Of a DNA stretch of 64,000 bases, positions 10,237 to 63,890 are shown piece after piece. A model generated the notes under the pieces. It did not search any database, had not been told where the DNA came from, and saw nothing but the letters and a program-made list of their open reading frames with translations. The stretch's first letter is position 1; the number at the start of each line of letters is the position of its first letter. The translations under genes and the position numbers were made by a program. The stretch comes from Chara braunii (taxonomy: Eukaryota > Plantae > Charophyceae), in the NCBI GenBank assembly GCA_003427395.1, contig BFEA01000013.1:1867827-1931826 (forward strand), in the 5' to 3' direction.

Positions 10237-10298
10237 GATTGCGGAAGCTCTGCCGGAGTTCAGGAGGAACTCTGGAGGGAGGGAACAGCAAGGTGCGC
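10237..10298 (+). promoter_or_regulatory. Conserved hairpin plus 5' splice donor (copy C)
   Basis: CCGGAGTTC-AGGAG-GAACTCTGG followed by AAG|GTGCG; five homologues in the window. Confidence 0.6.
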
Positions 10299-10459
10299 AC
10301 ACTCCAACCTAACATGTATAGCGCTTGAACCTATAACATTCAGGTAACTACCTATGATTGTATTAATAAAGAGAGTACTTTGAGTCAGGGGTTCGTCAGG
10401 ACTAAATACGGAGACAGAAGGGAAAAGAAACAATAATGCTTGAATAAAGAAAGAAAGGC

Positions 10460-11669
10460 ATGATTTGAGTAAGCGAGGCTCCGAGAAGCCTGCCTTATCA
10501 CCACAATGATAGTAACATGGTGATAAGAGTAGCGAGGCTCCGAGAAGCCTGCCTTATCACCGCGATGATAAGAATCAATGTGGTAAGAGGAGCGAGGCTC
10601 CGAGAAGCCTGCCTTACCATTGGAATAACAAAAGATCAATGTGGTAAGATGAGCGAGGCTCCGAGAAGCCTGCCTTACCACTGCAATAACTAAGATAAAT
10701 ATGGTAAGAGGAGCGAGGCTTCGAGAAGCCTGCCTTACCACTGTAATAATAAATACTACTATAATAACTAAGATCAATGTGGTAAGAGGAGCGAGGCTCC
10801 GAGCAGCCTGCCTTACCACTGTAATAACTAAGAAACAACGTGGTAAGAGGAGCGAGGCTCCGAGAAGCCTGCCTTACCACTGCAATAACAAAAGATCATT
10901 GTGGTAAGAGGAGCAAGGCTCCGAGAAGTCTGCCTTACCACTGCAATAACTAAGATCAATGTGTTAAAAGAAGCGTGGCTCCGAGAAGCCTGTCTTACCA
11001 CTGTAATAATAAATACTACTGTAATAACTAAGATCAATGTGGTAAGAGGAGCGAGGCTCCGAGAAACCTGCCTTACCACTGTAATAATAAATACTACTGT
11101 AATAACTAAGATCAATGTGATAAGAGGAGCGAGACTCGGAGAAACCTGCCTTACCACTGTAATAATAAATACTACTATAATAACTAAGATCAATGTGATA
11201 AGAGGAGCGAGACTCGGAGAAGCCTGCCTTACCACTGTAATAATAAATACTGCTGTAATAACTAAGATCAATGCGGTAAGAGGAGTGAGGCTCCGAGAAG
11301 CCTGCCTTACCACCATAATAACAACGATCAATGTGGTCAGAGGAGCAAGGCTCCGAGAAGTCTGTCTTACCACTGAAATAACTAAGATCAATGTGGTAAG
11401 AGGAGTGAGGCTCCGATAAGTCTGCCTTACCACTGCAACAACAAAAGAAGCAAGTGTGATAAGAGTAAGCGAGACTTCAAGAAGCCTGCCTTATCACCAC
11501 AACGATAAGAACAAGGTGATAAGAGTAAGCGAGGCTTCGACAAGCCTGCCTTATCACCACAATGATAAGAAACAGGTGATAAGAGTAAGAGAGGCTCCAA
11601 GAAACCTGCCTTATCACCACAACGATAAGAAACAATGTGATAAGAGGAGCGTGGCTCCGAGAAGCCCGT
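10460..11669. repeat. Array I: ~19 tandem 60/78-bp stem-loop units
   Basis: Consensus GTGGTAAG-AGGAGCG-AGGCT-CCGAGA-AGCCT-GC-CTTACCAC, with the variant GTGATAAG/CTTATCAC. Confidence 0.9.
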
Positions 11670-12145
11670 TGTCGAGCGCATCGGTCCCACACGGGGACCC
11701 TCCCGGCTGCGTCACACAGGATTATGCAGGACTTGTCGCGGAGAGCGTTTGCCGCTCCGGCCGAGTGCGCCAGCCGTACCTCTCGCGAGCCCCTACGACA
11801 GGACAAGGTCACGCGAGGCACCGCTACCTCCACCTGCGGGAGCTGTTACCATCCCTTAGGTGGGCGTATCCCTGCCGAGCTACTGAACCACATGCGAAAG
11901 CTTTTCGTATGCAATTGCAGAGGTGGCCCAGCCGAGGGCGTTTCTCGGTCGCTGTAGCATAGGGGGTACGCGAGGTCGAACGCCCGAAAATCGAACCCGT
12001 ACGCGAATCGTCGTACTGGGGGGCTGAAGTCCCAACGCAACTCGACGTCGGTCGACTAGGACGCACTACATACCCATGCCTTACACCACAATACGCACGC
12101 TTACTCACCCATAACACTTGAAACCCCACGCGAAACAAACACCAC
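11670..12145. repeat. Left inverted terminal repeat (X-type terminus)
   Basis: Reverse complement of about 22130-22601; homologues at 43498-43990, 23930-24251 and 30400-30610. Confidence 0.9.
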
Positions 12146-12435
12146 GAACTACCCCACAACCTTTGTGTTTGAATGAGATTGTGCTATCCCCGTTCTGTTG
12201 AGGTGATAATCCAAGTAGACATTCGGGTAAACCCCCACAGGGCTAATCCCGACGGTGTCCTTTCTGATAACACTAAAAGTATTTGTATCCTTTCCTTGTT
12301 AGGGTTTATTTTGGTGGAACGATGAAGTTCCGAGCGGAAGGGTTAGCGTGTCGCTGGTGTTGCGCCAGACAACTCATCACCGCTCCAAATTCCTTCCCGC
12401 CCTAGGAGTCGTCTTACCCCGCACCCTTTGGGGCA
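12146..12435 (+). repeat. Internal direct repeat, copy 1
   Basis: GAACTACCCC...CGGAAGGGTTAGCGTGT...GTCTTACCCCGCACCCTTTGGGGCA, repeated at 21620-21904. Confidence 0.9.
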
Positions 12436-12906
12436 CCTCAGGGTGCAGAAGACGGAAAGACCATCAGGCCGGTTTTGCGCTCTCTAAAGGGTTACCTCCC
12501 CTTAGCGCGCGCTTCAGCCAACGCCTTAGCGTCGGAAGTAACCCCATGGTTCCGAAATGGCCATTTAGGTATGGGCACCACATAATTGTCGGGGATCTCG
12601 GCTGCCTACCGGGGTCCTTAAGAGAACGAACCCAGGTTAAGTGTCGGCTGATGATCTAGGCAAAACGACAAAGGTTATAGGTTGGATTGGCTTATATAAG
12701 AGGGATGTATATGAAGTCATAATAAGACTGAGCGATATATAGTGCGACTAAAGGTTGTATCTTGGGCGTGAATGACTAATGGTAGAGCGGTTAGCTAAAC
12801 CTAGAAGTAGAGAATGATGTAGGGCAAACCCTCTGGAACTTGACGAACTGCTTACCGATCTGTCCCCTATTACTCCTGTCAGGTTGGTTAGCAAAAAGGG
12901 GTAAAG

Positions 12907-14710
12907 ATGCCAGACAACGATGGAATCGAGCGGGGCCCGGACGCTACGCCGGAGGACTTCGTCAAGGCACTCGAGAAAAGGGAGTTGGCACGGCTACAAG
13001 TGTCAAAGATTGACATCTTCCACTTCGAAGGGGAGAGGGTGTCAAAATGGTTGGAGCTCCTGGAGCAGATTACGGTCGAGGTGCCAGAAGCGGATAAATT
13101 CAAGTACCTACCTCGATACATCTAGTGGGAAATCCGGCCTGAGATAATGAAAGTAGCTGCCGGAGCAAGGGGAGACTGGGCGAAGTTCAAGGCGGAGATG
13201 CAAAGGCGATTCAAGTTAGGGGATGGTTTGCTGACAAAGACGGACTTGGAAATGCTACAACGTGATGAGTTCTCCACGGTAGGAGCCTTCGCCACGGCGT
13301 TTGAGAAAACGGCCAAGAAAGTCCCAGGGTTGGCAGAAGAGGAACAGTGTGCCACTTTCCTGGGCACTTCAAGAACTGGGAGACCTCGTCGCTAACTAAG
13401 AAGGCTGCGCCAGGAAAAAAGCTCACTTGGGCTGCCATAAAGGAAGGCGTAATGGACGGAGAACTGGACCAGGTAGACATCTTCCATATGAGACAGACTA
13501 GGAAGAAAAGGAAGGCCTTAGACGCTACGACGAGTGATGGGCGCGACTTCAAGAAAATGGTGGAGGATGCGGTGGCCCAACTCGATGCAGCGAAGGAGGC
13601 AAGGAGAAAAACTATGGCGGCATCGCAGACCCAAGGTAAAGCAAAGAAAGCGATGGTGCAGGAGGAAGAAGAAGAGGAAGAGGAAGAGGAAGAGGAAGAG
13701 GAGCCGCAGAAGTTGACAAAGGCTCAAAGGAAAGCAAGGAATTTGGCTCAAGGGGGGCAAGGCTCGGGGAGGGGCCAGATCCCACAAGCTGTAGCCATGC
13801 CGCCCCCTGAGTCGCCTAGTCAGTCCGCACCAGTACACTATGGGTCGTGGCCAGGGTGCGGACCCCCGAGTCATTGGCATGGGCACTGTTCATACGCCCC
13901 GTGGCCGATGAGCGGGCCGCATGGGTCGTGTGCCGGACCCTCAGTGAGTGCGGCTTCCTGTGGCTGCCCGGGACCCCAAGTGCAGCAAGTGAGCCGCCCG
14001 AACCCACCGCCAAAACAACCCCAACAGTCAGCCCCACAAGGTTCACAAGGCAATCAAGGGGGTGGACGTGGACAGAACCAAGGATGGGGCCGAGGGCGGG
14101 GGAATGGTGGCCGAGGAGAAAACGGTAGAGGGAATGGTGGTGGTAACGCTTCAGGTGGCGGAAACGAGGGCTGGACGGCATCCGGGAGTCAAGGCGGTCA
14201 AGAGTGTGGAAGAGGTGCTGGCAGAGGGAGGATAGACTGGAGAAATGCCATTTGTTGGCACTGTGGGCAGAAAGGTCATACTATTAAGTTCTGCCACGTG
14301 AGGAGGAACGACGAGGACGAAGGTTTAATTAGCACCAACTATGATGGAGACGTGTACGACAAGTGGGGGTACCACCTTGACCCGAAGATTCCGGGCGGTA
14401 CGAGGAAGGAAGCCCTGCGAAGGGCTGAGGCCGGTGAGCCACCCGCACCTCCAGCCATGTTTCGGATATGGCAGGAGAAAGAGGTCCGTAGTGACGTCAG
14501 GGTGGAGGAGGCAGGAGAGAACGAAGAGGTGGAGCAAGAAAGGAAGGTCGGCACTACTAAGGCATAACCGATCATGGTAGAGTCGGACGATGAGATTGAA
14601 GAGGATTACTGGAACAGGCCGTTGCATGCCGAGACAGGGGAAGACTATTGGAGAACGGTCCGACAGACAATGGAGAGAATGGAGGACCTGATAGACAAAG
14701 TCGGGAGAAG
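12907..14710 (+). pseudogene. gag: Retrotransposon Gag pseudogene (Ty3/Gypsy-like) with CCHC zinc knuckle, truncated before pol
   Basis: ORFs 12907-13125, 13147-~13365, 13347-14567 and 14574+ join across two stops and one frameshift. Capsid-like N-terminus (FHFEGERVSKWLE...W..FK.EM.RRF), RG-rich tract, and CWHCGQKGHTIKFC at 14253-14294. Confidence 0.85.
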
Positions 14711-15880
14711 CCCGACACCGGTTGCTTGTTGGGGTGATGGAAAACTGCCGCTGCCGCTCGTTCCCTTGGCCGAGTTAAGCACTGGGCGCTGTGCAGAGAA
14801 AGGCAGCGAGGGTGAGAGAGAAGGGGTAGGAGGAGTTAGAGGAGAAGGATACAGTACAGGTAAACATAGACGGACCAGAAGCAAGGAAAGAAGGTGACGA
14901 CAACAGAAGGGGAGTCAAGAGACTTACCTGGCGCAGTAGTCGGCAGTGTCCCAACGGAGATCCGCTTTCACGTTGTACCGTTGGAGACTGGAATACGGTG
15001 GCCCGTACTCGTCGTGGCGACCCCAATCTAGTACCATCCGGGGAGAGCTTTCGGCGGGATGGTAGTTACCGCCCCACTGGTGGTCCTACCTCTTCTCATA
15101 CTCGACAGCGCTGGCCTTGCCCTCGAAGATCATACGAACCTGGCCTGGAGACCGGCTAGGTGCACTGGGGAGAAAGACGAAGGTGGCAAAGGAAGGCTGT
15201 ACCTGAACAAGGCGTAGTACCGGGTGCATGCAGCGACAGGGATGGAAGGAGTAAGGGGAGGAAAAGCTATGGGGGGAGTGGCTGGTCATACCACGCTTAA
15301 TCCATGACGGATTTGAGAAGGGAAGGAAGCAGGGGATAGTCTTTTTGTAAGGCGAATTCAGCTCTGCAGTCAGATTGAGCAAAGGGTTAGAGGAATAGAA
15401 AGAAAAAAAAAAAAAAAAAAAAAAACCAGGCGTGGGTGAGTCGAGAAAGAAGAACAACAAAAAAGAGAGGAGTGAAAACTGTGTAACTTGGTCATTTCTC
15501 AGCGGATTCGGGCAAGAAAGGATGCTAAACTGGGGTTTCGGGCCACTGCGAGCACCATGGCGGTGTCAGAATTAGTAGTAAGGGGTTAGTTTTAGTGATA
15601 CAAGTGTTAACAGCTGCGCGGAAGGTAGAACTCCATGACTGTCGACAAAAGGTAATGTACCTTTCCACTTTTTGGCGGGAGATTCATTCACCTTTTCTTT
15701 CACTCATCTTCCGTAAGTGCCGCAGGGGAAACACAACGACTGTTTGCCTTGGAAGTACGCCCGGCTTTTATTTCGGTTTCCACCACGTTCGTAGTCTGTA
15801 TGCTAACGCTTTAGTTTTCTCTCTAATTTTGACTGAATCGGGCCATAATAAACGTAAGGTCCATCCATGGAGTAGGCGCG

Positions 15881-15938
<58 letters not shown>

Positions 15939-15951
15939 CACCTACCTCGGA

Positions 15952-16066: not shown

Positions 16067-18924
16067 GAAGAGCAGCAACCTCAGGACTGCAGGGGACGTA
16101 TCTTTCCACTTGCTAGTGGAAGGTTCATTCTCATTTTGTGCAGTTGGTGAGTGCGCTGCTGTGCAGTTGGTGAGTGGCAGCGCACGACCCATAGTTGTTA
16201 TCGGTTCGTCGTCATTAGATCCTGCTGTGGCGATCGTACTCATCATAGCCTTAGTTGGTAAAGCTTGCCCTCCCCGAGCCTTAAGCCATCCGTTTTGCGA
16301 TGGTATACGGCTGTATACGATCGTATACGATTGTGTGTTTCCTCTATTTTTATTCTTTTTCGTGTGTGTGTTCAGCAATTTACGAAATTCTCTTTCAATT
16401 TACGAAATTCTCTTTCTGTTTTTTCTTTTCTCTCCTGCTAGCATTTCCAGCAAGTCAGGGTAGACCCTCCTAGTGATGCCCCTAAGAAGGCCACAATCTC
16501 TCATTAGCACTGCATGCTCGGATTAAAGCCTAATGGCACTGAAAGATGACGTCCAGAGATTACATTGGAGACGACACTTGGAGTGCTCCGTGTGCCATCA
16601 ATAGAGGAGTGCTGCTGGGATAGACTTTGTGCTCTGAGTGCGAGAGAGTGTGACTCCTTGGACAGCAAAGGGTGGGTGNTATTGGAGAGGCTGATTTATC
16701 CACGCCGAGGCGAAGCTGGAAGAAACAGAGGGGATGTCTTCATGAGCAATCATTGAACGAGGGTTGTGGTCCTGAGGTGGCAGTATCTTGGCTTGGGGTT
16801 TAGCATGTGCCGTAACCACGTTCCTTTCGACAGGCTGGTTTATTGACTTCCAGCCTCTGGATGCTTGCTCGTCTGATGCTCGTTGCTCCTCCTGCGTGCT
16901 GGCCTGCCTGCTTGTCGAACCCTTCTTGACTCATGGGCTTGATGTCTCGGGTGGACTGTTCTGCGCGATCTTGATGGACTGTGCCCGGACAATAAGGTTA
17001 GCCCTGGAGGCGCAATTCGCCCTTGACGGTATTGCTGGTCTTTGCAGCCTGCAGGGGCGAGATTATTGCTGTACNATAGGCAATANCTGTTGTCTTGGCT
17101 TGTTGGTAGGCTCGAGAGGGGCGGGGCCGCTGAGTCAGTAGTTGAACGTCAGGCTAGTAAAGTATAGACCGAGCTGATCTCAGAATTGGTGAAAAGTCGA
17201 GCAACCACAACTAGAACGAAGACCGCCACCTCAACCTGGGAAGTTCCTACTCCCTTATCAGGCGGCTGCCTATGTAGCTGCACTATTATTAGACTACTGC
17301 TGAACTGCTGCAGTTGTCATGGCTGCTACGACCCCGGGTGAGCGACGCGGGTAGCGGTTGAACTGTGCATCGTTGGGCTACCTGATCGAAAGGCTGCGCT
17401 GAGGGAGAAGGTAGAGGAAGCAGCCTGGCAAAGTTGTGTAGTTTCAACTGTGCTGAGTTCGTGCGGGGGACTGTGCCGAGCGATAGCATGCAGATTTAGT
17501 GTGACTTGTATCATTGCACTGTCGACGAGGTACCGGCGCTGATCATAGCACTGTTGTTCCTTGAGGTACTAGGTTATCAGGCTGGTACTGCCGTGGTTCT
17601 GGTTGTGNGGCGTTGCCGGTTTCTGCNGGTCGGTGCCTTTTGCTGGGTCTCGCCGTACTCGCGGCATCATTTACTAAGCATCNCTGGGGGTTACTGTTAT
17701 GCTAGCCTACTGCAAAGACTGTTGCTGTTCTCGAGTGGGCTGATGCTACGACCGGGGTTTGCTCAAGAAGAGGTCACTACTACGTCTTGAGGGCCTGACG
17801 GGGGACTGTTATTTTTCAGGACTTGGTACGGTTGCAGGGCGCTCGGGGTTTTGAGTTTCGACAGCAACTGCGGTGGGGAGGATTGCTGCTGGGCAGCACA
17901 GTGCCCTTTGCTGGGTACTGCTGCTGGGCAGCATGGTGCCCTTCGCTGTGTATTGCTGCTGGGCAGCACGGTGCCTTTCGCTGTGTACCACTACTGCGTG
18001 TGTCAGGGGCTGCTGGTATGGTGGCGGTATAGCGGCTATCTTCTGGGAGGCTACAGCTACGGACTGTGCATTGGTGGGGCCCTCGCCGGGCTACTACCGC
18101 AGTATACCATAGATGCTCTCCGTCACGGCGGAGCTGCTGTTGCTATTTGGGGGGGGGGTCTATCCAAAACGCAGCCCTTCCCAGGCTGTGTGGCTACGGT
18201 TCGGACAGTGGATGCTGTTGTTGGCCAAGGTCTGGACTGGTTGCTGTGGTTACCGGCTACTAGCTACTGCATATTGTGGGCTGTGCACAGGCCACCGCTA
18301 CGAATTGCTGCGAGCTGCGGCTGGCTACAGTTGCTGCTGTTGCTGGCAAAAAACTGTTGCTGCGGGGGCTGTGTCGCTCCTGTTTCTTTGGGAGCAGCAG
18401 CGACAGGTTGCGGACAACTGAGACTCGCTGAGCTGCTGCAGCCAGCCAGATGGGGCAGTGACAGCTACCACCGCTGCTACAGAACCAGGTTGCCACAGTG
18501 CACGGACTGTGGGTTGCTGTGCGCTTGGGGACTGATGCGGGGCCACTTCGTGGCACACCTGGTACTTGTCGTACGTTCGCTGATGTGGGTGGCTGGCTGT
18601 GCATTAGCTACATGGAGAAGTGAACAGGCCGACATAAAGGTGTTGCAATGACTTAGTGGACGTCAGGGGGGTTGAGTTCAGCGGGAGGCTTCAGAAGTTG
18701 AACAGGCTGTTACATTGGTCGTCATTGCGGAGCCCTCAGGCGCATCAAGACAACGAGGCCCTCTCCAGTGAGCTAAGCGCACCTCTCTTGGATCCTGAGA
18801 GTCTGAACCTTTCTCCATCTATCCTTCTTACTCTCAGTCTGGTCGTTGGTTACGAGAGGAAGGCGGCAAACGGGATTGCAACCCGTAGGTCCACGCCAAG
18901 GCCTCTGTGGGAGGTTGCCCCACC

Positions 18925-18985
18925 GATTGCGGGAGCTCTGCCGGAGCCCAGGCGGGGTTCTGGAGGCAGGGAACTTCAGGTATAA
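18925..18985 (+). promoter_or_regulatory. Conserved hairpin plus 5' splice donor (copy A)
   Basis: CCGGAGCCC-AGGCG-GGGTTCTGG followed by CAG|GTATA; a pyrimidine tract and CAG acceptor lie at about 18805-18837. Confidence 0.6.
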
Positions 18986-19214
18986 TCTCGCTAACCTGTG
19001 TGATCCCTTCCCCTATCTCCTATCCCCTAGGTATCTGAATGTGTATATGGGAGGTTATTACTTTTTGTTTTGTTATGTATGTCAGGACATGCATTGTGGA
19101 AAGCTAAATGAACAAGTATATATGAGTGTTCATATAAGCTTGAGTGAAGTCAGAAAGAATGAATTGGGGGAAGGTGGGAGGAAGGTGTATCGCTTGCTGT
19201 GACCAGGTCAACCC

Positions 19215-20490
19215 AAGGCTGGGCCCCTCTAAGTTGGTGTGGGCTCAGTGCTGTGTTTTATTCATGTTTGCTGGGCTGCTTGTATGGTTTGGAGGGTTGG
19301 GCCTATCCTAAGTTGGACGGACCAGTCGCTGTTTTTTTGGGGTTTCTGAACAGGAGGATGGGCACCCTAAGTTGGGAGGTCCCAAAATCCTGGTGGTTTT
19401 TTTGTGGGTTGCTGAAAATAGAGTTGGGAACACTCTAAGCTGCGTGGACTCAGTTCTGTGTGTGTTTTTTTCTGAGGGGGACACAGGCATGAGGCTGAGC
19501 ATACCCTTAAGTTAGGGCGGCTCAGTCATAAGCCATGAACACAAAGGTCAACCAAAGTATACAACTTTGATACATACTATACGAACCTATATCATCTGAC
19601 AGACCGGGCACCCTAAGTTGGGAAAGCCAGTCAGTAAGTCAGGTAGAACAATAAGAAGAAAGAAGTGATAAAGAATACAATGATGGTAACCAGGGAAGAC
19701 TGAGCGTACCCTTCAGTTAGGGCGGCTCGGTCCTATGCTCGTAATAAGACAAAGGATCAGCAAGTTAGTATAAACTTGTTTTATTTTCCCTTCTAAACAC
19801 GAGGCAGGGTTGGATGTCTCCCTAAGTTGGGTAGGTTTGATCATCTGCCTAATAAGAGAGAAACACATAAAGTTTGTGCATGTATCAATGGTGGTTTTCA
19901 TATGATTGTCGTTACGGAGGCTAAGCGTACCCTTAAGTTAGGGCGGCTTGGTCATACGTCGTTGTGCCTTGTTCAGGCAGATTCTGTCTTATATAACTAT
20001 ACTGTTTAAGTCAGCTAGGCGTACCCTGAAGTTAGGGCGGTATGGTGATAGGCTCTTGTCGTTGGTGTGATGTAGGTTGGACATACCCTTAAGTTAGGGC
20101 GGTCTGACCATTCGTCGTTCGTGCTTGTTGTGTAGGTTGAACGTACCCTTAAGTTAGGGCGGTCTGACCATTCGTCGTTCGTGCTTGTTCTAGGCAGGCT
20201 AGGCATACCCCTAAGTTGGGGCAGCCTAGTCCTATGCCCTATGTAGCCAGGTCTATGAGCTGGTTAGGCATACCCTTAAGTTAGGGCAGTCTAGCTTTAT
20301 GCTTCATGTCGTCAGTTCAAGCAGAAGCCAGGCGTACCCTTAAGTTAGGGCGGTCTGATCATATGCTTTATGACTAGAGTTTATCTGGAGTTGGGCATAC
20401 CCTTAAGTTAGGGCAGTCCAGTTGTGCGTACCTTTACTTGTTTACTTAGGCAGGTTGGACATACCCTTAAGTTAGGGCCTTGTCTGATCC
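19215..20490 (+). repeat. Array II: ~17 stem-loops with core RTACCCT-TAAGTT-AGGGCR and variable spacers
   Basis: Period about 60-110 bp; each core is enclosed by its own complementary 7-9-bp arms. Confidence 0.9.
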
Positions 20491-20869
20491 TATGCCATAA
20501 GTGAGGGAGTTATTGAAAGGGAACAACTTAGTGATCTAACGAACTACCTGGGCAAATGTATGTGGGATTGTGAGAGATGCATGCTCATGTATGATTGTAG
20601 GGTTTCACTTGGGGTATCTTTTCGATAGGTTAGTTGCTTTAGATGCTCGCCAAGTGCAGGAGCCATAGGTAGGTCAGATAGATGTTGGGAGGGAAAACTT
20701 CGGATGAGGATAGGACTGACCCTGCTAGGGGTTAGGCCCAATGCTAGCCCCCGGTCTCATCTAGAGGTCGTGTTGGTTGTCATTGAGTCTGGATCATCAC
20801 GCAGATGTCGGAAGTTAGTCCCAAGTATAGTTGCTTTGTTTCGTTGCTTTTTCAACTTTGTATAAATCT

Positions 20870-21000
20870 TGGCAGCCTCCTGTTCCTACAGGAAGTGCTG
20901 CCGAAATTTCTAGCAATCTGAGGGAGTTGGTCATTTTTTTACTCATAGAAATTCTGAAAAGGCACTTTTTCTATGGGAAGAGCTGCCGAAATTTCGTAGA
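20870..21000 (+). repeat. Array IV, two units (GGCA...TTYC-TAYR-GGAAG.GCTGCCGAAATTT)
   Basis: Reverse complement of the units at 31815-32430 and 45230-45850. Confidence 0.7.
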
Positions 21001-21619
21001 ATTTTGGGAGTTAGAATGTTTTTCAGTTGGGAGTTACTTAGCAGACCTATCCTGATTAGAGGAGATGCTTAGTGACCTGGTACTCGTAGAGGAGCTAGGA
21101 CGCGACTAGGGGGATGTTCTCCCCTTGGCACAAGCATGAGTAGTACTCTTCTTTCGCCTGTACTGTGATGCAGGTTTCCGAGTTATCATTTGAAGGCTTG
21201 ATCTGATCAAGTTATTTCGTCAAAAGGATTACTCTTCTGTTATCGCTGATAACAGGTCGGTTGCCGACTCGTCGGTCTGCGACTCAACCCCAACTCACCC
21301 TCAACACCCATCCCTAAAAGGCTTTAGCCCTGGTGATTTTGTTTGTTTTGTTAAGGCTTCACCCAGACTTTTATTGAATGGTCATTTAACAGAAGTACAG
21401 AGTACTTAATTATCGTTGGTTGGCTGGAGGTAAGGGCTTGTGTGGCTAAAGCGAGGGGTGTGAGTGGAGAGGCTGGTTGGAGTTGACCCCGTGTAGCATG
21501 TGGATCTTTGTTTGATATCGTGGTGTGATTGCAGGTATGTAAGGAAGAGTCTCGATTGATTCATGTTGAGTGGTATTGCGTGGATTCAGATGGGCAGACG
21601 ACACAACTGTTGTGAGAGT

Positions 21620-21904
21620 GAACTACCCCATAACCCACTTGTTTGAGTGAGACGGTTTTGTTCGCGTTTCAATAGGGTGGTAATAAATGTGCGTTCGGGT
21701 AACCCCTATAGGGTTAATCCCGACGATGTATTTCTTGATGATGCTAAGGGTAGTTGTTTTATCCTCGTTGGAGTTTATTTTGGTGGGACGATAGAGCTCC
21801 GGGCGGAAGGGTTAGCGTGTTGCCGGTGGTGCGCCAGACAACTCACCACCACTCCAATTCCCTTCCTGCCCTGGGGGCCGTCTTACCCCGCACCCTTTGG
21901 GGCA
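21620..21904 (+). repeat. Internal direct repeat, copy 2
   Basis: Matches 12146-12435. Confidence 0.9.
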
Positions 21905-22129
21905 ACCCTCGAAGTTAGCAAGGGCCACAAGGCTACGAGTACACCAGAGTACCCCACCAGCGCGAATGCTTGCGAATGCCCGCATGGCTGGTTGTCATGA
22001 GGAGGTCATGCGCTCGCTCGACTCTTATACGGAAACCCAGCGCGCGACGCCTATCTGCTTCTGTTGCGTAAAAGTATGGGTCGGATACTGAAGGGACTAG
22101 GAGTGGTGTCGTGGCGTTGTTTGTGGCGG

Positions 22130-22601
22130 TCGTTCTGTGTGTGTTTCTGTATGTTATGAGTGGGTAAGTATGAGTATCGTGGTGTAGCGCGTGGTGAGAG
22201 TAGTGCGTCCTAGTCGACCGACGCCGAGTCACATTTGGAATTTCAGCCCCCCAGTACGGCGAGGCGCGTGCGGGTTCGATCTTCGGGCGTTCGACCGCGA
22301 GTAACCCTCTATGCTACAGCGAACGAGAAACGCCCTCGGCTAGGCCACCTCTGCAATTGCATACGAAAAGTTTTCGCATGTGGTTCAGTAGCTCAGCAGG
22401 GATACGCCCACCTAAGGGATGGTGACAGCTCCCACAGGTGGAGGTGGCGGTGCCTCACGTGACTTTGTCATGTCGTAGGGGCTCGCGAGAGGTACGGCTA
22501 GCGCACTCGGCCGGAGCGGCAAACGCTCTCCGCGACAAGTCCAGCATAATCCTGAGTGACGCGGCCGGGAGGGTCCCCGTGTGGGACCGATGCGCTCGAC
22601 A
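22130..22601. repeat. Right inverted terminal repeat (X-type terminus)
   Basis: Reverse complement of 11670-12145. Confidence 0.9.
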
Positions 22602-25600
22602 CCGCCTTATTATCATCTGACCTTGTTCTAATGCAGGACAGTGAATAGGAGCAGTAAGACCCTCGAGGTCTGCCCTATTAGAAGTAGACGATGGGAAGAT
22701 CCCGAGCGGTCTACCATATAACTACTAACCTTCTCAATAAAATTGGATCAATCAATTACTAACAGACTGTTTCTGATTCTATTGAGGAGAGGATAGTGAG
22801 ATTTTGACCCTGAGAGACTTATCACTCTATCTTGAAACTTCTCATTTGTTTTCTATCATGTGATTTTTCTCCAAGATGAATTAATGACATTGCTTGTGCT
22901 CGCTAGGGAAAGAAACAAGAAAAAGGGTTATAATAAATAATCTTAAAAGGAAACTTATGAAGGATCACTAGGTCGGAAGAGATAGGAATTAACTTTGTTC
23001 ATTACCCAAACCCATAAGCCAACATCCTGGCATTTAGGTAAGGATTGAGGATAGACAGTGGGTCACAGGTGAGCATCGATCTTTACGTCACAAATCTAGA
23101 AGGAATCTTTTAAACCTTAGCATAGGAAAGAGGATGTTAAGTTTCTTTCGGACTGTGCTGTGTCTACAGGTTTCATCACACTTGGAGAAGATTACGGAAG
23201 AAAACCGTAAGGAACTGCAATTCTGTTATCATTGGATAAAGGTCGGTATAATTCCGACTCAACCTCCACATGGCTTGATACCCACACCTAAGACAAAACC
23301 TAAAAAGGGAAACGGATAGATCTTCCCTTGTACCTTAGCCTAAATTGTCCAAATCATCTCTCGAAGGTCTTTGAAAAGATGAAGGGCTGGGTAATAGGAG
23401 TCAGGAGTAGGAAGGAGTGTTGTTTTCAAGGTTTTGGGGAGTGAGGGACTTGCTGTGAATGGGTTAAAGGTTGACGCTTGTAGCGCATTCTGTGTTTTGT
23501 ATTTGTATGCATGTATGTGTTTTCTTGCATCTGCACAAGTGTTGGGCAGTGAACTGTCTTTTCTGGACTTAAGGTCACCTGGGATATTCGGACACAGGGC
23601 ACCGCAATTTTGAAAGTGAGGTCCACCGCTCATTTGCTCCCCTGATAAACATATGTACTTATATATGTCTATCAACAAGTTCATACTCTGGTCTGAGCTT
23701 AGGAAGGTTATTGTTTGGGATTCTGTTGAGATCTTGAGAGGGTGAGAGATTACAAAAGAATTTAAAATTTGACATTTTCTCGTTTGGTCAATGAAGGAAC
23801 ATAGATTCGCTATCATATTTAGCTAAGCGTGGAAGACTGTTCGGAAAAGTCGACCTGATAAGAATAGTCGGTCCGAGGGAGTTAGTACCTCGAGGCACAA
23901 TATACGGGTCAGTCTTAAGGTGTTTTACCGCGTGTATGCCTATGCTACGACGATCGAGAAAAACGTCATCGGCTGGCTTACCTCTGCGATTGCATGTAAA
24001 AGTCTTTGCACGTGGGCCGGTAGCTCAGCAAGGATACGCCTGCCTAAGAGATGGTGACAGCTTCCGCAGGTGGAGGTAAGTTGTACCTCGCGGGATCTCT
24101 AACCTGTCGTAGGGATTCGCGAGAGGTACAGCACGCGCGCACGGTCGGAGTGGTGTTTTCCATAGGTGACAAAAGACTCATGTGTGATACGAGTGTGAGG
24201 TCCGACACAAGAATTACTTTGCGTCTGGGTGTGGGACCGCCACGTGCGACAGCGGTATGTGTGACGGGAGCCTGCAATAGTTAATTTTAGCTTATGCGTG
24301 TGAGTCATGAACAAGGAGGACACTAATCTTCTTTGTATCATTCCAATTATAACAAATGTCCCAAATGACTTTGTAGTAGTTATTCAATAGGTTGTAATAT
24401 AGTAGTTATTTGCATAGCAAGATTGACTATAGCGTCCGTAGCTACATGAGTTAGCATAGCAAAGACTATAATCTCAACAACAACTATCGTAACAGTTGTT
24501 TGTTGCAACAACTTCATTGATCTGCACAAGTTTATAATAACAATCAGTTATAGTACTCTGCAGACAATAGGCAATAGCAACAATAGTCTGCTGCAATAAA
24601 TTTTAGGTTTACCTTACGATAGTTATTATTAGTGTTTCATAAAGATCACACAATTTTAAGTAATTGTGTGTAACACTGGTCACTATAATCTATAGCAATA
24701 ACTTATGCCAACTATTACCGTAGAGGTTATCAAAGATAAGCTTCTTCAATAATTGATTCGCAAGTTAACGACCTCGAAAAACGTGTTGTAGAATCAAGTG
24801 ACTTGTTAATGTGTGTATGCTTATTACTGAGTTTTCTATTGGTTGCTAACTACAGGAACGCTTGAAAAAGTTGAAATCTATGAAAAAGCAAGATTATGTA
24901 AACTTGCACCATTATACTTTCCTTACCTGATCAAGAGGTCGAATCCCGATTTAATATTTGATGTACTTTCACTGCTAACAGGTAACTCTTAGCAGGAATG
25001 AATTTCAAAAATAAATAAAATCGATTGAAATTAGTGACACAATAAAGCATATTATTATGAAAACTCGATGTAAACAAACCTTGAAGATCAAGTTTTCGAA
25101 GATATGATCCTATAAGGTCTCCATGAGAGTATATCAATACCGAAATTTATCAACCTTGCCCCCTCTTTTCTTCTTCTTGTTTATTTTTTACCATCCTTCG
25201 ACATCTTGCTTTATTATATTGTCTTTTGTTTATTTGTCTTCTCTCTTCTTCCTCGTTATTTTCACCCCATTGCTTCCTCTATATTATGTCAGATTACCGT
25301 TGGGTCCATGCAGACCATCAACATTGTATTTAACTACGTTCATGATTGTATTTGTTCAAAAAAAAACAAATAAATAAGAAGAATGAAATTAACAGATATT
25401 ATCATCAATAAACAATTTAACTACACGAAACGGTTAGTGACCCACACAAAATGTTGTCAATAGCGGGGAGGACGGTCATAATGGTGGCAACAAAATCCTG
25501 AGCAACTTCGACTTTGTCACGCTCAAGCATAATTCACTTCCTTAGTTGCAACAGATATCCATGTGTCTCAATCTCTTTATTCACTTCAATACTCAAAATC

Positions 25601-28429: not shown

Positions 28430-28441
28430 ATCTCTCTCTCT

Positions 28442-28500: not shown

Positions 28501-28503
<3 letters not shown>

Positions 28504-46756: not shown

Positions 46757-46969
46757 CTTGGTTGACCCAGTCAAACGCATGCAGTCTGTCGTCCTCCCAC
46801 CTTTCCCCAGTTCATCCCTTAGTCTGCTTTCAGTCAAAATAAAACTGAAACTTATACTTCACTCTCATGAAAGAAAGCAAACTCATAGGGGCAATCTCAT
46901 TCATACAACAGTCAAACTAAGGGGAGATAAGCAAACATGGGTATAGTGGGGTCATAGAGATAGAAAATG

Positions 46970-47031
46970 GTATACCTGTCAATTCCCTGCCTCCAAAACC
47001 TCGCCTAGGTTCCAGCAGAGTTCCCGCAATC
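46970..47031 (-). promoter_or_regulatory. Conserved hairpin plus 5' splice donor (copy B)
   Basis: The minus strand reads CTGGAACCT-AGGCG-AGGTTTTGG followed by CAG|GTATA. Confidence 0.6.
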
Positions 47032-50000: not shown

Positions 50001-53000
50001 GGTCACTCTGCCCTCGTTACGCACGGGTCATGCTTATTTTCTCCGTATCGTTCCATCCTTAATAGATGTCCCGAAGGACTTCGACCGGGGCAGTGCCCCG
50101 CGACCCTTCGGAGTCTGAGCGACCCCAGGCATTTCAAAGTATTCAGCCCCACACCTCAAGCCCCACTGTTTGGGACGGAACGCGGGTCTTTGCCCATCAG
50201 CTCACGGGTGTATCCACCGAGCTACGCCCGTTGGGTCAACAGCCAGTCTTGGACCCGGCCCCGGACCCGATTTCAGATAAGACTAAATAAGAGTAAAGGA
50301 AAATTTTACAAAAGCAAGAAAAGTTCAAATTAAGGGAGGGAGTGATCGTGAGGAAGGGAGGGATCCACCGGTACTCCCTCGACCTTTCCAGCACGGCCCG
50401 CAATCAGACTTCCCAACAAAAACCAAGGGGGATAGTCCCACCGGACCCTCGACCACTTTGCCTCTCCATAAGACGCTCCCTCGCTCCTAAGCTGCCGCCC
50501 GCTGGCCTCGATCCCCACATTTTCGTCTCGCAAGTCCAATGTCGTAACCCATAGGGCTAAGCCCAAGCCTGAAACCAGCATGCGAGGAATCTCATATAAA
50601 CTAGTGTGGCATAGTGCCCAGGGTCAAGAAAGCGCCCTGGGCCGCCTCTCCGCCCACGGCCGTGTGTGCGTCATTCCGCACACCCAACTTACCGTCGGTC
50701 GAACGTGCTGGATAGGAAGATAGAAACTTTGATATCCTTACCTTAATCAGCAAACAAAAAACAAGCCGGCTGGCTATGCCGGCCTTACGAACAATTCAAA
50801 GGAAAATATCACACTCGCGCCGTAAAGCTTGCGCGACCACACACTCTCTGCCCTAGTCAACCATTTAGTCAGCGGGATTCACAGACGCAACCGCGCCTTA
50901 CGTGGAATACTTAGATTTTAAACCAACTTATTTCCTGTTGTTTGCAAAAACTACGGCGGATACCCTTATAAGGGTATTTGCACCGACAACTTACCGGACC
51001 ATATTAAGCGATGTCCTCGTCGCTGTGCAGAATCAATAAACTATAAATCCATTCACAATACCAAATGTTGACGATGAAGGAACCAATCCGATTAGCCGAC
51101 AGACTCAGGGTTGAGGCCTCCAACAATCCAAGCCCTTATAACTATATGCCGCCACAGTTCCAACCTGGGTCTCTATTGTCCTGACATTAGAACGCAGGTG
51201 TACTGGACATACGTACTACAGCACAAGTCTTAGCAGCCCCTCTCAACTGTCCCCTCCCCTTTGTCCTAGATAAACGCCGGCTTCTCGTTAAGTGTCCCCG
51301 GCCTCTACCCTGCACGCAGGGTCATAACCAGAGACGCGGGCCTTAACCGAGACCTTTGTAGGCACTCTTGCCTCCCTCCAACAATTCTCGAAATCAAACA
51401 TATATATATACACAAATCCCATCATAGATTTTTCCTGCAGTCTAGTACAGGAAGGTCAGGTCTCCATCCTGGTCCACCATAGTCTGTGTGATCATGCCAG
51501 ATCTACGGCCCACCGCGTTGTTATTTTAGTGGTAGTGCCCTCGCAGGTTGCGCCACGATAGGCTTTCTCCTGATAAGTATCCAATCAGGACCCAAAAAGA
51601 GTCGACTCGACTCCTATCCCACGTCGTTCCGCAGGAGTAAAACCCTCCTAGATGGTCACATCCTTTTAAGTCTTTACTCCCTTGGCAAGACGTAGGCCCG
51701 TTGTTCAGATTACGCCGATCAGCAGCCGACACTAGGGGTTGCGCCCTAGTGATGCTAAACTTTACCGTTAGCTTGGTATTCTCATAAATGCCCCAAGATT
51801 AGCACGAATAGCTGGACGGTGTGTTGCAACAAAACAGGCCTACTGCGGAACTACACAAAGGTTTGTCATACATAAAAGGTATTTACCAGTCCTCTGTAGG
51901 ACAACACAGAGAAACAAGGCAACCTCTCCACATTTACAAAACATAAATCACCGCGAGATCCACAAGGCTGTGACCTCCCGGCCTGATCAGAGCAAGAGGC
52001 CACACATCCCAGTGACATCTCCCAAATGAACCATTTTGCGACCTCTTAAAAATCTCACCAATGGCCTAGGACAAACGTGGTCCTTCTCGTCAGTCTTTAT
52101 CATTCAAATCAACTTCCCATGCCATTAAATCTATTAACCCTCTTTCTTATGAAGGAGGTCTCACTCAATAGGTCTCCCCAGTCAACCCTTCTCTTTCTAG
52201 GATGAACTCCCATACGACCTTTCTTTAACACATCTTCCCTCTCTGAAGATAAATCTTCCAATAAACAGAAGATTGTCTTCCCACAAAAGGCGTCTCTACC
52301 ATAAAACAACTCAAACTGAGAGACCAACTTATGGGTCCTCATCACAACTCAACAGTAAACATTTGGCATGGCAAGCATTCAAGTCTCAAGGAATCATAAA
52401 TCCCTCAGGATTCTCGCACTTTTCACAAAAACAGACTGCACTTTCTCTCTTTATACCCGACCATATTATCCGCTCATGGGCAGATCGCACGAGTATACCA
52501 AAGAGTAGACATTTCACATTCATTCACTTTCACAAAACATACAGTATGTGAGATGTTTCTCATACATCTCCCACCCAAAACCATTATACATTAGGACAAA
52601 ACCACATGTGTGAGAGTGATTGTGAGCGTCATATACAAAAAGTAGCCTCAAATAGTACTCAACTCAAAGATACACTCAAGGATGGAGGTATCTCACCCAA
52701 AAAAACGCACATAATGGTTCAGGTTTATAACTCACTTGGATCTACTTAAGTCACTCTCAATATGCTACATGGCCATACATCTTGACTCTCACATTTCCAA
52801 AAAGAAACTCGATGGGAATCGTACACTGTAATCCCCTATATGTACAAGCCACAGCGTAAGTGTTTGGTTCCTGACAATATTAAGACAGAAAATGACCATA
52901 CAAACGAGTATCCAATCTGACGAGTATCCAATCTGATATATGAAAACTCAACTCTATCTACAATATCCTAGTGGCTATCTGTACCTGGGCAAACTAGTCC

Positions 53001-53004
53001 CTCC

Positions 53005-53165
53005 TCACTCATCTCCTCTTGGTTTTGCCTATATAATTGTGCTCTACCCCTATCAGTAGATCTCTCTACCACTCGGCTCTGTCTATCATACATCCTTCCT
53101 GCACTCTCTGAGACCTTCCCTTCCGCTTTGTCCTTAAGGAACTTAGGACATTCGAGGGCCCAATG
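53005..53165 (-). pseudogene. gag: Gag C-terminal fragment (second half of a zinc knuckle), truncated by the element starting at 53171
   Basis: HWALECPKFLKDKAEGKVSESAGRMYDRQSRVVE parallels HTIKFCHVRRNDEDEGLISTNYDGDVYDKWG in the Gag at 14277. Confidence 0.65.
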
Positions 53166-53916
53166 TACGCTGTCGGACAAAATACCCTTACAAGGGTATT
53201 TTGCCATGTCTTTGCATTCGACACGGTGGCTGCGTCGGCTACCATGACGTAGCCAGTCTTGAATGAAGGGGGTGTGCACGCTTAGCGTGACACTGGAAGC
53301 GAATTCCTCGGCCACTGAGGCCGGGACAAAAATCGGTGAGAAAATTTCGTTAAGAGAGTGCGCGCGTTATTTTGACGCGCGCCGTGGTAGTTAGGATCAG
53401 TAGTAATACCCCTCGGCAGAAAAGGTCGAGGGGTCAGTTGGGTTAATGATGTGTCTGGTAGGTCTACAACACGCACTGAGACTTGGTCTAGTGCCTGTCT
53501 GTCTTCCGGTACCAGGTATTCTAAAGATTTTTGGCTCTATCTTCCCCGACTCGGCCTCCAAGTCAAGTACCGCCGTGTCTACCTCAATATGGTGAGGTAC
53601 CGACCCACCCGCTACTTGAATGTTGTCCGTCACACTTAAGATGTAGCGGACCTTTGAATGTCGCGGCCACGGCTAAGTACCGGGCCTACGGGCCTTCTGA
53701 GTAACTAAGTGCCCTTGCGGGTCACACACACGCCCAAGCCGATAGGCATGCAGTCTGGCATGCGTAAACACACACAAGCCGACAAGCACTCAGACTGACG
53801 CACAGACCGGCAGGCGGGTGCGCGCCTCACATATCTAGAAATGGGCTCGGATCAGTAGCCAGACCAAGCCCCACTACACTACAAATAATCGAGCTGCTCC
53901 TCTTCAAATTGAAATA

Positions 53917-59835: not shown

Positions 59836-59874
<39 letters not shown>

Positions 59875-61206: not shown

Positions 61207-61245
<39 letters not shown>

Positions 61246-62783
61246 TTATTACTATAATCCGACTCGTTTCATCCACATTTCATGCATGAGAAACAGCAGC
61301 ACCGCAACTGGCGCTATGACGCCCGCTCAGAAACTCAGAGTCATAGCAAGCCAGACAAGAGTTCACTCTCAACTGACTAGGCCAACTCAGCACCCAACCA
61401 CACGTTGTTCACATGCACACGCACCGCTTCCCTAACTATGAACTATGGCAGTTGTGGCTGCCCCTACCGTATCCACGATGGCTGTACTTCTTTTCTCTCG
61501 CCCTCTGCGTCCTTCGAGCACGCTGTAGACCACCGTGCACGAGGCGCTGAGACAGCGCTCTCGCATGGCTTCCGCACGAGTGAAGGAAAGCCTGGGCGTT
61601 GCCCCATGATTCATACTTCTGAAAGCCGTTTGGTCTGCTCTGTCCCACCGGCCGTGGTGCTCACGACCCCTCGCTGTACTTACTGGACTAGGCTGAGACA
61701 GACAGACAGACAGGCTGATTCGGAAAAAAAAAAAAAAAAAACGGACAGGCAAACAGACGATCAGAGAGCAGGGACACACAAACACTATGACATGAACGCC
61801 GTCACAGTGACGCACACACAGTCACACGGTGACATTGCTCAATGACATAGTGTGACGTGCACGCGGATGCGGTAACGGGCACAATGTCACGCACTGTGAC
61901 ACGCACGCACATGCATATACAGTAAAACCCACACCATTGCGGTGACAGACACAGTGTCACATACGCGGCAACACAAATCTTCGGGCGCTTGCGGACCTTC
62001 GTGCACAAGATGCTCTGACAAACGCTCAGCACGACTCACAGGCAGAATGAATGAAAAACTTGACGCTATTTTCTTTATTTATACTTCGGATTGTCAGAGG
62101 GCTGCCTTTAGACCCTGGGGCCGGTGCGCACACAGTCCCACATGGGACTTGCTGACTTGTCAAAGTACGATAAAGACTGGGCACCGCAGATAGGGCTGAA
62201 TCAGACTGCTGCTCGCCCTATTGCCTACAGACCGCGTGATCAGACTCACGAACGGTCATTTTCAGAATCTTCAGAAAACTGCAGGGTGGATCTTTCGGTA
62301 CAGTTGCAACCACGACTATGATACAGCTGTGACTCCTAAGGCGCAGACACCTAGTGCTCGGTGACAGGCACTGCGCTGTGACACAGATACGCGATCACAG
62401 TGACATACGGGCACGTGGACGAGATGTCACATATACTGTGACACAGGCGCACTCGCGGTCTACATTGCTGATAACGTTACGGACACTGGTCCTAGAGGTT
62501 AAAGTGAACCTGTTGTGAGAAGGCGGTTGTAGGAGGGATAGGCAAGTAATAAAGGCTGGGCAAGGAGGCACCAGTCCCTATATAGGGAAGGGCGACCCTG
62601 GGTACCATGTTGGAGTAGGACTGAAGGGTTGAGCATTGACCTATCACTTCATCTTATTGCTTTATTTTTATGGATTCTCGGCGATATGGAGCTCGCTGAT
62701 TGTACACGGTTCCCCAGGACAATCTAAGTGAATTTTGTAACTAGGGTTGTATATCATTCACGCTCGTACTCTTGGGTCTTTAC

Positions 62784-62844
<61 letters not shown>

Positions 62845-63827
62845 GTATTACTATCATTATTATTGTCATTATGAGGACTACTGCTGCGGCAAGGCCTCTT
62901 GCCAGCCCTAAATAAAGGCGGGCCGGACATGTGACTACCCTAGGAGAAGGCAAGTCAGAATATCCATGATCAGGTCTTCTTTTCAACATTGTAAATGGGT
63001 ATCAGACAATTCCAGCACGCCGGTTGGTTGGGATGCACCGGGGTACCCCGGGCTCCTACAAGGAACAACTGAGCCTGGGCGTAGGCCAGGGCAGGCGGAC
63101 TCATCACGCATTGGACAATGGCCAATTAGAAAGCAACACTGCCGGTGTAGAGGCTGAGCGAACCAATGGGAAAACCAAAAAGGGGTCTGCCTCTGGATCA
63201 CAGTCCGGGCATAAGGGGCGCTACTGCTGGGGACACAGCGCCGCGCCGCTCTCTGTTCGAATACATGGGCAGGGCCCACCGATTGAACAACCGCTGATGC
63301 ATTAACCCAATGAAGAGAGGAACTGAAGGGAAGGAAAGGAAAGAGGAGAAATAAAGGAGGAAAGAAAGGGGAATGGGGGTGAATCGACGGTGGATCTAAT
63401 AATAGGCACTTCTGCCTTCCCGCTCATCCGATGGTTTCTTTCGAAGTCGTTCAGAAAACATTGATAGAATATAGCCACTACTATTGTTATTGTCATAATT
63501 ATTTTATTTTGATATATTTCTTTGTTGTTATTGTTTGCTATTGTTATTGTTATTCTTTTACTACTATTATTAAAATACCATAGGGTCTGGGAGAATCAGA
63601 CATGAAAGAAATGTGAGACGCTAGAGGAGGGAAAGACAATATCACATATGATGGTGCCTACTTCCTCTGACCTCCGCCGTACTTATCTCCGTCCAATCTC
63701 CTCAGGCATCTGTCTTCTCGACTTTGAGTATCTGATGATGTATTTTCCATTGAGAATGATCCGGTTTTGCTAATTTAAAGGTCAGACAATCAGTTGCGTA
63801 AACTAGACGTGATCAATAGAACAGGGC

Positions 63828-63890
63828 GATTGCGGGAGCTCTGCCGGAGTTCAGGTGGAACTCTGGAGGCAGGGAACAGTGAGGTATGAG
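63828..63890 (+). promoter_or_regulatory. Conserved hairpin plus 5' splice donor (copy D)
   Basis: CCGGAGTTC-AGGTG-GAACTCTGG followed by GAG|GTATG. Confidence 0.6.

Follow-up and report, generated by a model that had tools for sequence, protein, structure and literature searches.

Covarying stem-loop arrays beside a conserved hairpin and putative splice donor in Chara Ty3/Gypsy 3′ regions

The signals by which plant retrotransposons direct packaging and export are poorly defined. Family-specific 3′ arrays are common in plant Gypsy elements, where they give rise to satellite DNA; according to a 2025 survey, it is still unknown how they arose and what they do (PMC11963269). In the Retand and Ogre elements, tandem arrays of this family-specific kind lie between pol and the 3′ LTR, and the available portions of the two papers describing them hold no mention of stem-loops, hairpins, or secondary structure (PMC11963269, PMC7004042). 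Among other retroelements, export elements occupy an equivalent 3′ position (PMC4588558).

We analyzed a 64,000-nt stretch of Chara braunii DNA (hereafter, the window), in which several element copies combine a short conserved block with arrays of stem-loops. We give about even chances to the reading that the block and arrays are repeated putative protein-binding sites which tag genomic RNA that has not been spliced, either for export from the nucleus or for packaging. The original prediction that this arrangement has no described equivalent was too strong given Retand and Ogre (PMC11963269, PMC7004042).

Colinear copies and the block hairpin

Five blocks of about 60 nt, each ending in AG|GT (5/5), had been proposed and were all recovered: copy C at 10237..10294 (+), copy A at 18925..18981 (+), copy E at 34193..34250 (−), copy B at 46974..47031 (−), and copy D at 63828..63885 (+). 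The first intron base of the putative donor would be 10293, 18980, 34194, 46975, and 63884, respectively. The blocks of A and D are 85% identical over 61 nt (E 4.8e-11), which is beyond chance across subfamilies, and a model built from the five blocks found no sixth copy below E 0.7 in the 64-kb window. The window stops 115 nt past block D, so downstream sequence is visible in C, A, B, and E only.

The copies had also been described as otherwise diverged, which does not hold. A, B, and E are colinear, with 67–80% identity over ~3.9 kb, and a conserved non-coding segment precedes the block in each (A, 18698..18924, +; homologues at 47032–47259, −, in B and 34251–34449, −, in E). Copy C has its downstream segment and terminus in common with these three, and C and D share the flanks on both sides of the block. 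The right termini lie at 22108..22601 (+) in A, where the sequence ends in CGACA, folds better on this strand, and is flanked by CCGC; at 23913..24251 (+) in C; at 30457..30522 (−) in E, as a remnant; and at 43498..43923 (−) in B. Judged from sequence, the 3′ regions seen in A, B, E, and C are colinear, belong to one Ty3/Gypsy superfamily, and have the same terminus.

The non-coding nature of the copies was upheld by the absence of any Pfam match above the curated cut-off among the 117 window ORFs, by 1-nt indels that segregate among RNA reads just upstream of the block, and by two protein searches in which block-containing frames found no match. A search of Rfam with the block and arrays returned nothing, and a tRNA scan found none. 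The block pattern had 0 matches in metagenome contigs and 0 in viral contigs, and a gag query yielded no confirmed locus in either.

Selection on RNA structure was supported for the block. The five copies form one hairpin in which 5/7 inner-stem pairs have changed on both sides. In total, 67 of 70 cells are paired, a number reached by 0/500 shuffles, and the count of double-change pairs was matched by 27/500; the cells of this and the following comparisons are non-independent because units and copies are related. G-U pairs outnumber A-C pairs 12:1 on the block-sense strand. Identity between A and B falls from 0.86 inside the block to 0.54 directly after AG|GT.

Stem-loop arrays, candidate intron, and RNA reads

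As predicted, an array follows the block in all four copies with visible downstream sequence, starting ~170–270 nt past the donor. The arrays comprise 19 units in C (plus two diverged units), 17 in A, 8 in E, and 7 in B, so that unit number ranges from 7 to 21. Array I, in C, spans 10461..11669 (+); its 19th unit is cut by an insertion, beyond which the remainder of that unit and the two diverged units, with compensated stems, resume at 22602..22730 (+). Each unit consists of a basal stem, an internal loop, a 5-bp stem, and a 6-nt loop. Array II occupies 19206..20497 (+) in A, and array III occupies 33189..33940 (−) in E and 46130..46764 (−) in B.

The idea that the motif is exchanged between subfamilies failed for arrays II and III, which are orthologous: their spacers are homologous, and they agree in basal stem and loop type. 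On sequence grounds, they are one orthologous array with concerted divergence of one motif and no module swap. Both retain the basal stem and a UAAGYY-type loop, and the apical stem has changed with compensation. Across 32 units, 82.8% of 256 basal-stem cells are paired, with 38 double changes; this pairing was reached by 0/500 shuffles and the number of double-change pairs by 61/500. In the three apical base pairs, 84/93 cells are Watson-Crick (31 units) versus 45.5 after shuffling.

Covariation is present in arrays I to III, in agreement with the proposed selection on RNA structure. On the block-sense strand, G-U exceeds A-C by 62:15 in arrays II and III, counts that are inflated because the arrays in A, B, and E are mildly G+T-rich. 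The excess here and in the block favors a single-stranded molecule of that strand. Array I has double changes in 6/13 pairs and no strand preference (G-U 4, A-C 12), and its sense fold is lower in 1/18 units.

The predicted second array (IV) is present in A (20855..21017, +, 2 units), B (45204..45853, −, 6 units), and E (31795..32444, −, 5–6 units, the sixth being weak). RNAalifold gave no consensus fold for it; it folds with its own upstream arm, and its G-U to A-C count is 16 versus 11. We also observed that its 3′ arm resembles the 5′ arm of the block.

These arrays could instead be neutral, hypervariable 3′ repeats, in which hairpins stall reverse transcriptase, template switching duplicates and homogenizes units, and the fold is a by-product that nothing binds. 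An origin of this kind has been proposed for the Ogre/Tat 3′ arrays (PMC7004042, available portion). Array I looks the part, being a young homogenized tandem array without strand bias; unit number varies from 7 to 21, and conversion between units could account for the concerted motif change. However, orthologous units with distinct spacers persist in A, B, and E, the loops are fixed while the stems vary with compensation, and the single-copy block covaries too. Repair of palindromes at the DNA level would yield Watson-Crick pairs rather than a one-strand G-U excess. We therefore regard neutrality as rather unlikely.

The putative donor may have a partner. A, B, and C have in common a conserved acceptor-like site, which lies 3′ of all arrays. 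In A, it stands with a conserved downstream segment that closes on a second donor-like site (21140..21540, +; last intron base 21173); the same segment follows the site in B (44721..45115, −; acceptor 45085), and a homologue of it follows in C (23140..23520, +; acceptor 23169). Copy E has no acceptor AG, and a crude filter passed 10 acceptor-like sites in A and failed the site in B. The candidate acceptor would place every array inside one intron.

We used three poly(A) libraries (X1, X2, and X3; raw-read runs picked by species label) and mapped reads on the A and B regions; most were <95% alike to the window and come from relatives. Two of the three libraries contain block-sense RNA from these relatives, with sense versus antisense values at the block of 31.3 versus 1.2 (A) and 17.1 versus 0.6 (B) in X1, and 59.9 versus 0.3 (A) and 45.3 versus 0.2 (B) in X3. 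In X2, reads come from both strands, and antisense exceeds sense near the terminus. Read cover extends to the terminus from ~18700 in A and from ~47270 in B. AG|GT is retained in every listed read variant, and the reads reveal another compensated inner stem (16 reads in X1 and 31 in X3, at a loose end at 47009).

Presence of the arrays in the transcript had been suggested to depend on the donor. The conserved candidate acceptor past all arrays speaks for this part, whereas the joints listed in the RNA reads include no donor junction, and most of the listed loose ends (the 24 listed of 379 and the 24 listed of 711) read through the donor. A contig joint at 46065–46973 (depth 33) was rejected as a splice because its start lies 3 nt past the donor, and we read it as a relative with a different array. 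In X1 (17 reads) and X3 (27 reads), a single loose end has GTTT rather than GT-purine after AG; it resembles the start of the candidate downstream exon in C, and its 23 letters are too short for a junction call.

The gag-bearing insertion and competing readings

The element that interrupts array I has its left end at 11670..12160 (+), an inverted copy of the right terminus flanked by CCGT. Its termini read TGTCG...CGACA, the flanks CCGT/CCGC match at 3/4 positions, and array I resumes beyond. It contains a decayed Ty3/Gypsy gag (12907..14720, +) with stops, a frameshift, and one CCHC knuckle, truncated before the protease. This single insertion holds gag and block A on one strand, and the gene models P0022, P0030, and P0031, which come from other loci, also combine this gag family with these 3′ segments in matching orientation, so the suggested link to Gag-encoding elements is supported. 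Relatives of the window gag continue into protease, RT, RNase H, and integrase, with rve and H2C2 integrase domains; the window itself has gag and an ORF tail only. The best solved match was Ty3 Gag-Pol (E 4.6e-51). Since gag and integrase occur in this family, we rejected a Penelope-type origin.

The ORF tail is the C terminus of a post-integrase ORF, just past its second CCHC knuckle (52995..53177, −). It lies on the same strand as block B and 6 kb upstream, with another terminus between. In the ESM Atlas, this ORF gave gag-like clusters at 0.88–0.91, which serves as a lead only.

As a separate observation, the gag-bearing copy has inverted ends of ~500 bp (435/504 columns identical) and a 4-bp target duplication, not direct LTRs. 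Two direct LTRs are absent from this sole copy with both ends visible; it has an internal direct repeat of 290 bp, 77.6% identical, whose copies lie at 12146..12435 (+) and 21620..21904 (+) and of which B and E show no counterpart at the corresponding position. A look by eye found no obvious tRNA primer-binding site or polypurine tract.

Based on these features, the tagging reading may work as follows. The conserved stem-loops sit in the 3′ non-coding region of the Chara Ty3/Gypsy superfamily, and AG|GT would act as a donor with the acceptor-like site 3′ of all arrays as its partner. Splicing would then strip the tags, and unspliced RNA alone would keep them. The binder may be either Gag or the product of the post-integrase ORF, a second Gag-like CCHC protein of this family. 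Co-evolution with this binder would account for the concerted change of apical stem and internal loop within a subfamily, and non-autonomous copies may retain the cassette so as to exploit the protein in trans.

Alternatively, the 3.9-kb unit from ~18700 to the terminus could be the R/U5 of a long LTR, in which the block would form the leader hairpin carrying the major donor and the array behind it would be a psi-like packaging signal. Retroviral leaders have this order of hairpin, donor, and stem-loops; the terminus closes with CA, and read cover spans ~18700 (A) or 47270 (B) to the terminus. This edge of cover need not be a start site, because homology to the relatives also drops at 18700. 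Moreover, the 1.2 kb before the window's only gag has no block or array, and no copy shows the unit and then gag. We consider a leader unlikely.

Palindromic double-stranded DNA sites for an element or host protein are very unlikely. The core of array II is similar to a palindrome at the termini of a different element family in the window, and DNA binding has been predicted for the antisense proteins of Retand (PMC11963269, available portion). However, pairing is kept while the stem letters vary freely, and G-U exceeds A-C on one strand, neither of which is predicted for double-stranded DNA.

Small-RNA precursors or a host-protein sponge, both raised in the original prediction, would suit a long row of hairpins and the antisense RNA in X2, but the helices are short (3–13 bp) and interrupted by internal loops. 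Dicer-like substrates have longer helices, and with Rfam also matchless for block and arrays, we see only the slimmest chance here. Equally improbable is that the block ends a coding exon, now decayed, from an accessory ORF, which would explain several synonymous-looking changes in one frame and the weak upstream similarity common to C and D, but not the 1-nt indels among copies and reads or the lack of a match in 815 candidates or 1.84 billion representatives.

Comparison with known systems

The Chara arrays share with those of Retand and Ogre (Tat) a position 3′ of the coding region, family-specific units, variable copy number, and a long 3′ region (PMC11963269, PMC7004042). They differ in that the Chara units are covarying stem-loops in arrays orthologous across subfamilies, with a conserved hairpin-donor on one side and a candidate acceptor on the other. 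The structural evidence on 3′ arrays looks new. Tat membership is not established, because two Tat features were not seen. An additional archaeal-type RNase H marks that lineage (PMC4408406, available portion), and no second RNase H family was found in the 5 of 53 long relatives scanned, whose gene models may be incomplete; the antisense TRP28 ORF of Retand has no Pfam match in the 117 window ORFs of these decayed copies.

Like the RRE, CTE, musD MTE, and MLV PTE, the Chara arrays are structured cis-elements near the RNA 3′ end, proposed to act on unspliced RNA (PMC4588558). Those elements are mostly single multi-stem domains, whereas Chara has 7–21 simple units plus a second array. As expected of an export or packaging element, the block and arrays II and III have a conserved RNA fold on the genomic strand; the signal is weak in I and IV. 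If the tagging reading holds, the Chara cassette is a concrete candidate packaging or export signal in a plant retrotransposon, and its natural motif variants on orthologous units permit swap experiments. These would offer a test for a class of plant retrotransposon 3′ repeats with unknown function.

The insertion's ends invite two further comparisons. As in DIRS-1, a gag-bearing retroelement has inverted terminal repeats (PMC7192593), here in one copy. Unlike DIRS-1, the Chara family encodes a protease and a DDE integrase and has a 4-bp target duplication; neither a tyrosine recombinase nor an internal complementary region was detected, and nothing internal matches the termini. Ginger1 has similar TGTNR ends, terminal inverted repeats, 4-bp target duplications of the CCGG/CCGT type, and a Gypsy-type integrase, but its inverted repeats measure 40–270 bp (PMC2836005) versus ~500 bp in Chara. 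It encodes only an integrase-like transposase, whereas gag lies between the Chara inverted ends and relatives have RT and RNase H. A broader proposal, which we hold to be improbable, is a Chara Ty3/Gypsy lineage with inverted terminal repeats, a second Gag-like CCHC protein, and intron-borne stem-loop arrays as an RNA recognition code that is specific to each subfamily and evolves together with this protein. Such a lineage would combine DIRS-like ends, a DDE integrase, and a Ginger-like 4-bp target site, and, if the inverted ends prove general, it would be a missing link among the Gypsy, DIRS, and Ginger architectures.

Five block copies and one superfamily

All five predicted hairpin blocks were present (C 10237+, A 18925+, E 34248-, B 47031- and D 63828+), and a model built on them found no further match in the window below E 0.7. 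Every block ends in AG|GT plus a purine (5/5), the putative donor, and folds into two 7-bp helices with a 3-nt bulge between them and a 5-nt loop, the sense fold having lower energy than the antisense in 5/5 copies. Pairing held in 67 of 70 cells, with both-sided changes in five of seven inner pairs, although these counts, like those for the arrays below, are not probabilities because units and copies share ancestry. Reads from relatives supplied another compensated inner stem (loose end at 47009). Identity between A and B rose from 0.78 upstream to 0.86 within the block and fell to 0.54 immediately after it.

The copies had been described as otherwise diverged, which did not hold. A, B, and E are colinear from ~280 nt upstream of the donor through to a shared right end (the terminus), and C shares the terminus and a conserved segment downstream of the arrays. 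C and D have common flanks, and the A/B/E upstream segment is absent from both (z 1.2 and 0.2). Repeats with (TAT)n tails end ~250 bp upstream of both blocks. C's apparent truncation is due solely to a 10.9-kb element (11670-22601) that interrupts its 19th array I unit; the unit continues at 22602 and is followed by two diverged units and then the A/B/E-type conserved segment and terminus. This inserted element is copy A plus its own gag; gag, block, and arrays therefore lie on one strand within one insertion. The conserved segment also holds a small hairpin in all four copies (21238-21256(+), 23224-23243(+), 45001-45019(-), and 31595-31614(-)), with one compensated A-B pair.

Stem-loop arrays

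As predicted, arrays begin ~170-270 nt downstream of the donor in C, A, B, and E; D leaves the window first. The claim that the motif is exchanged between array II (17 units, in A) and array III (7 in B, 8 in E) stood as to the kept fold, but the two are one orthologous array whose spacers align. Matched by position, six A-B unit pairs had stems and flanks more alike (0.58) than those of unmatched pairs (0.44; permutation p 0.01); that alignment also supplied the matching. Each unit is built from an 8-bp basal stem and a 3-4-bp apical stem, separated by a small internal loop and capped by a 6-nt UAAGYY-type loop. Over the apical 18 nt, B and E units were 0.80-0.87 identical, whether compared inside one copy or across the two; the value was 0.67 among the A units (13 of 17 used) and 0.35 for A vs B.

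In the basal stems, 82.8% of 256 cells were paired with 38 double changes, values reached in 0 of 500 shuffles; double changes touched six of eight pairs, which 61 of the 500 shuffles equalled. Apical pairs were Watson-Crick in 84 of 93 cases vs 45.5 when shuffled (31 of 32 units, A10 excluded), largely a two-lineage contrast. G-U pairs, whose excess over A-C favors single-stranded RNA of the block-sense strand, led 62:15 in total (A 36:5, B 14:3, E 12:7). Array I has the same architecture in unrelated letters, with double changes in 6 of 13 pairs and no strand signal (G-U 4 vs A-C 12; sense fold lower in just 1 of 18 units). Array IV, the second array in A, B, and E, forms longer hairpins when units are folded singly (sense lower in 11 of 12, from about 14 units); RNAalifold gave no consensus fold for it. 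The RNA structure is shown to persist while its sequence changes, at a constant position and on the strand that is transcribed. Neutral hypervariable repeats are an unlikely account.

Transcripts and element setting

We aligned reads from three raw poly(A) runs with the same species label (X1, X2, and X3) and one contig set. On A, 172, 3022, and 297 reads aligned out of 8.9, 16.7, and 16.2 million, and they derive from relatives, since most were under 95% alike. X1 and X3 were one-stranded at the block (A 31.3 vs 1.2 and 59.9 vs 0.3; B 17.1 vs 0.6 and 45.3 vs 0.2), in block sense under the usual library convention. X2 was two-stranded, with antisense roughly twofold over array IV and the terminus; this excess runs inward from the terminus (20706-22542 and 43430-46245). 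Depth across the arrays was 0-3 in X1 and X3, which may reflect splicing or only divergence of the expressed subfamilies.

Among the joints listed, none of the raw-read joints fell at the donor. Of the loose ends listed (24 of 379 and 24 of 711), most run on into GT-purine intron-like sequence, and one continuing with GTTT could be a junction. An acceptor-like site with shared upstream context stands downstream of every array (A 21173, B 45085, C 23169); in E the AG is lost. A crude filter gave 10 acceptor-like sites in A and failed B's conserved site, so it is conservation that argues for the candidate acceptor. If it is real, all arrays lie inside one intron.

The window is composed of decayed repeats nested in one another, and a Pfam scan of its 117 ORFs gave a single match, under its cut-off. 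Its longest ORF (13305-14564) matched 42 proteins, every one of them labeled Chara braunii, and a second search from the best match for longer proteins added 53, again all C. braunii. Many related proteins have the Ty3/Gypsy domain order of protease, RT, RNase H, and integrase, and Ty3 Gag-Pol is the nearest solved structure. The family encodes an extra ORF downstream of integrase (P0044, P0054, P0082, and relatives) with a terminal CCHC knuckle, the family's second, and this knuckle is intact in 7 of 12 proteins having that tail; the ORF's gag-like features are a lead only. The tail of this ORF occurs at 52995-53177(-), on B's strand and 6 kb upstream of B, a link that is only suggestive because another terminus stands between. 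In three gene models at other loci (3 of 95 proteins), the gag family is joined in the same sense to the conserved segment, terminus, and segment S (12146-12435 / 21620-21904). These models, the single insertion, and the suggestive ORF tail place the cassette of block and arrays, probably, in the 3' noncoding region of the element; a leader or LTR location instead is improbable.

The 11670-22601 element begins TGTCG and finishes CGACA, with ~500-bp inverted ends (435 of 504 columns identical) and flanks CCGT and CCGC, a 4-bp target duplication within array I. The 290-bp segment S is directly repeated inside both ends (77.6%), and the terminal sequence folds better in 3'-end orientation (-72.9 vs -51.0 kcal/mol). 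Unlike Gypsy elements it lacks direct LTRs, and it showed no recombinase of the DIRS type; its target site fits Ginger1, but gag is present, unlike Ginger1 as excerpted from PMC2836005. The same excerpts suggest that such ends could arise from two opposed LTRs. No paper in the literature searched described inverted LTRs in a Gypsy element, DIRS aside, and the inverted ends, seen in one copy, may be a rearrangement. Another family's termini (TGTCG, then a conserved palindrome) lie at 2900(-), 34625(+), 38621(+), 50990(-), and 53165(+). Six of nine termini of both families have N-CG-N flanks and two N-TG-N, which suggests a CpG target preference.

Other features include U6 snRNA-like fragments below the Rfam gathering score (50009-50079(-), 24276-24369(-)), the former with a read pile that leaves at 50079 and hints at a U6-derived repeat; decayed LSU and SSU rRNA fragments lying between repeats (41129-41534(+), 39571-39729(-), 56048-56145(+)); a palindromic tandem array of 136-bp period (6464-7088) with a related inverted-repeat cluster (37378-37770); a MITE-like self-inverted element of ~420 bp with 71% arms (42650-43072); and many SINE- or LINE-like copies with (TAT)n tails (4977-6116, 9682-9976, 56284-56755, 59434-59877, 62610-62872).

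Proposed function and known 3' arrays

We put at about even the chance that the arrays are protein-binding tags restricted to unspliced RNA. Many units, each a hexaloop stem with an internal loop, would offer avid binding sites, and their position between putative donor and candidate acceptor would limit the tags to unspliced RNA, as with the export elements that retroviruses carry close to the RNA 3' end (excerpts of PMC4588558). The predicted binder would likely be the post-integrase CCHC protein or Gag. Readings as DNA sites, as small-RNA precursors, or as a coding exon are improbable even taken together. Upstream of the block, reads differ by 1-nt indels, which, with two empty protein searches, speaks against the exon and agrees with the predicted noncoding character.

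The original prediction knew of no described equivalent. In the literature searched, we found no description of this cassette or of structured 3' arrays; "stem-loop," "hairpin," and "secondary structure" are absent from the main texts of PMC11963269 and PMC7004042, and older Retand, Grande, and Ogre papers may discuss hairpins. Family-specific 3' arrays as such are already known. With evidence from five copies, and function and splicing putative, the arrays make the open question of 3' array function testable. The feature is real and is a variant of these known arrays: in Retand, tandem arrays particular to each family lie between pol and the 3' LTR, of unknown origin and function (PMC11963269, in part), and Ogre carries them in the same position (PMC7004042, in part).
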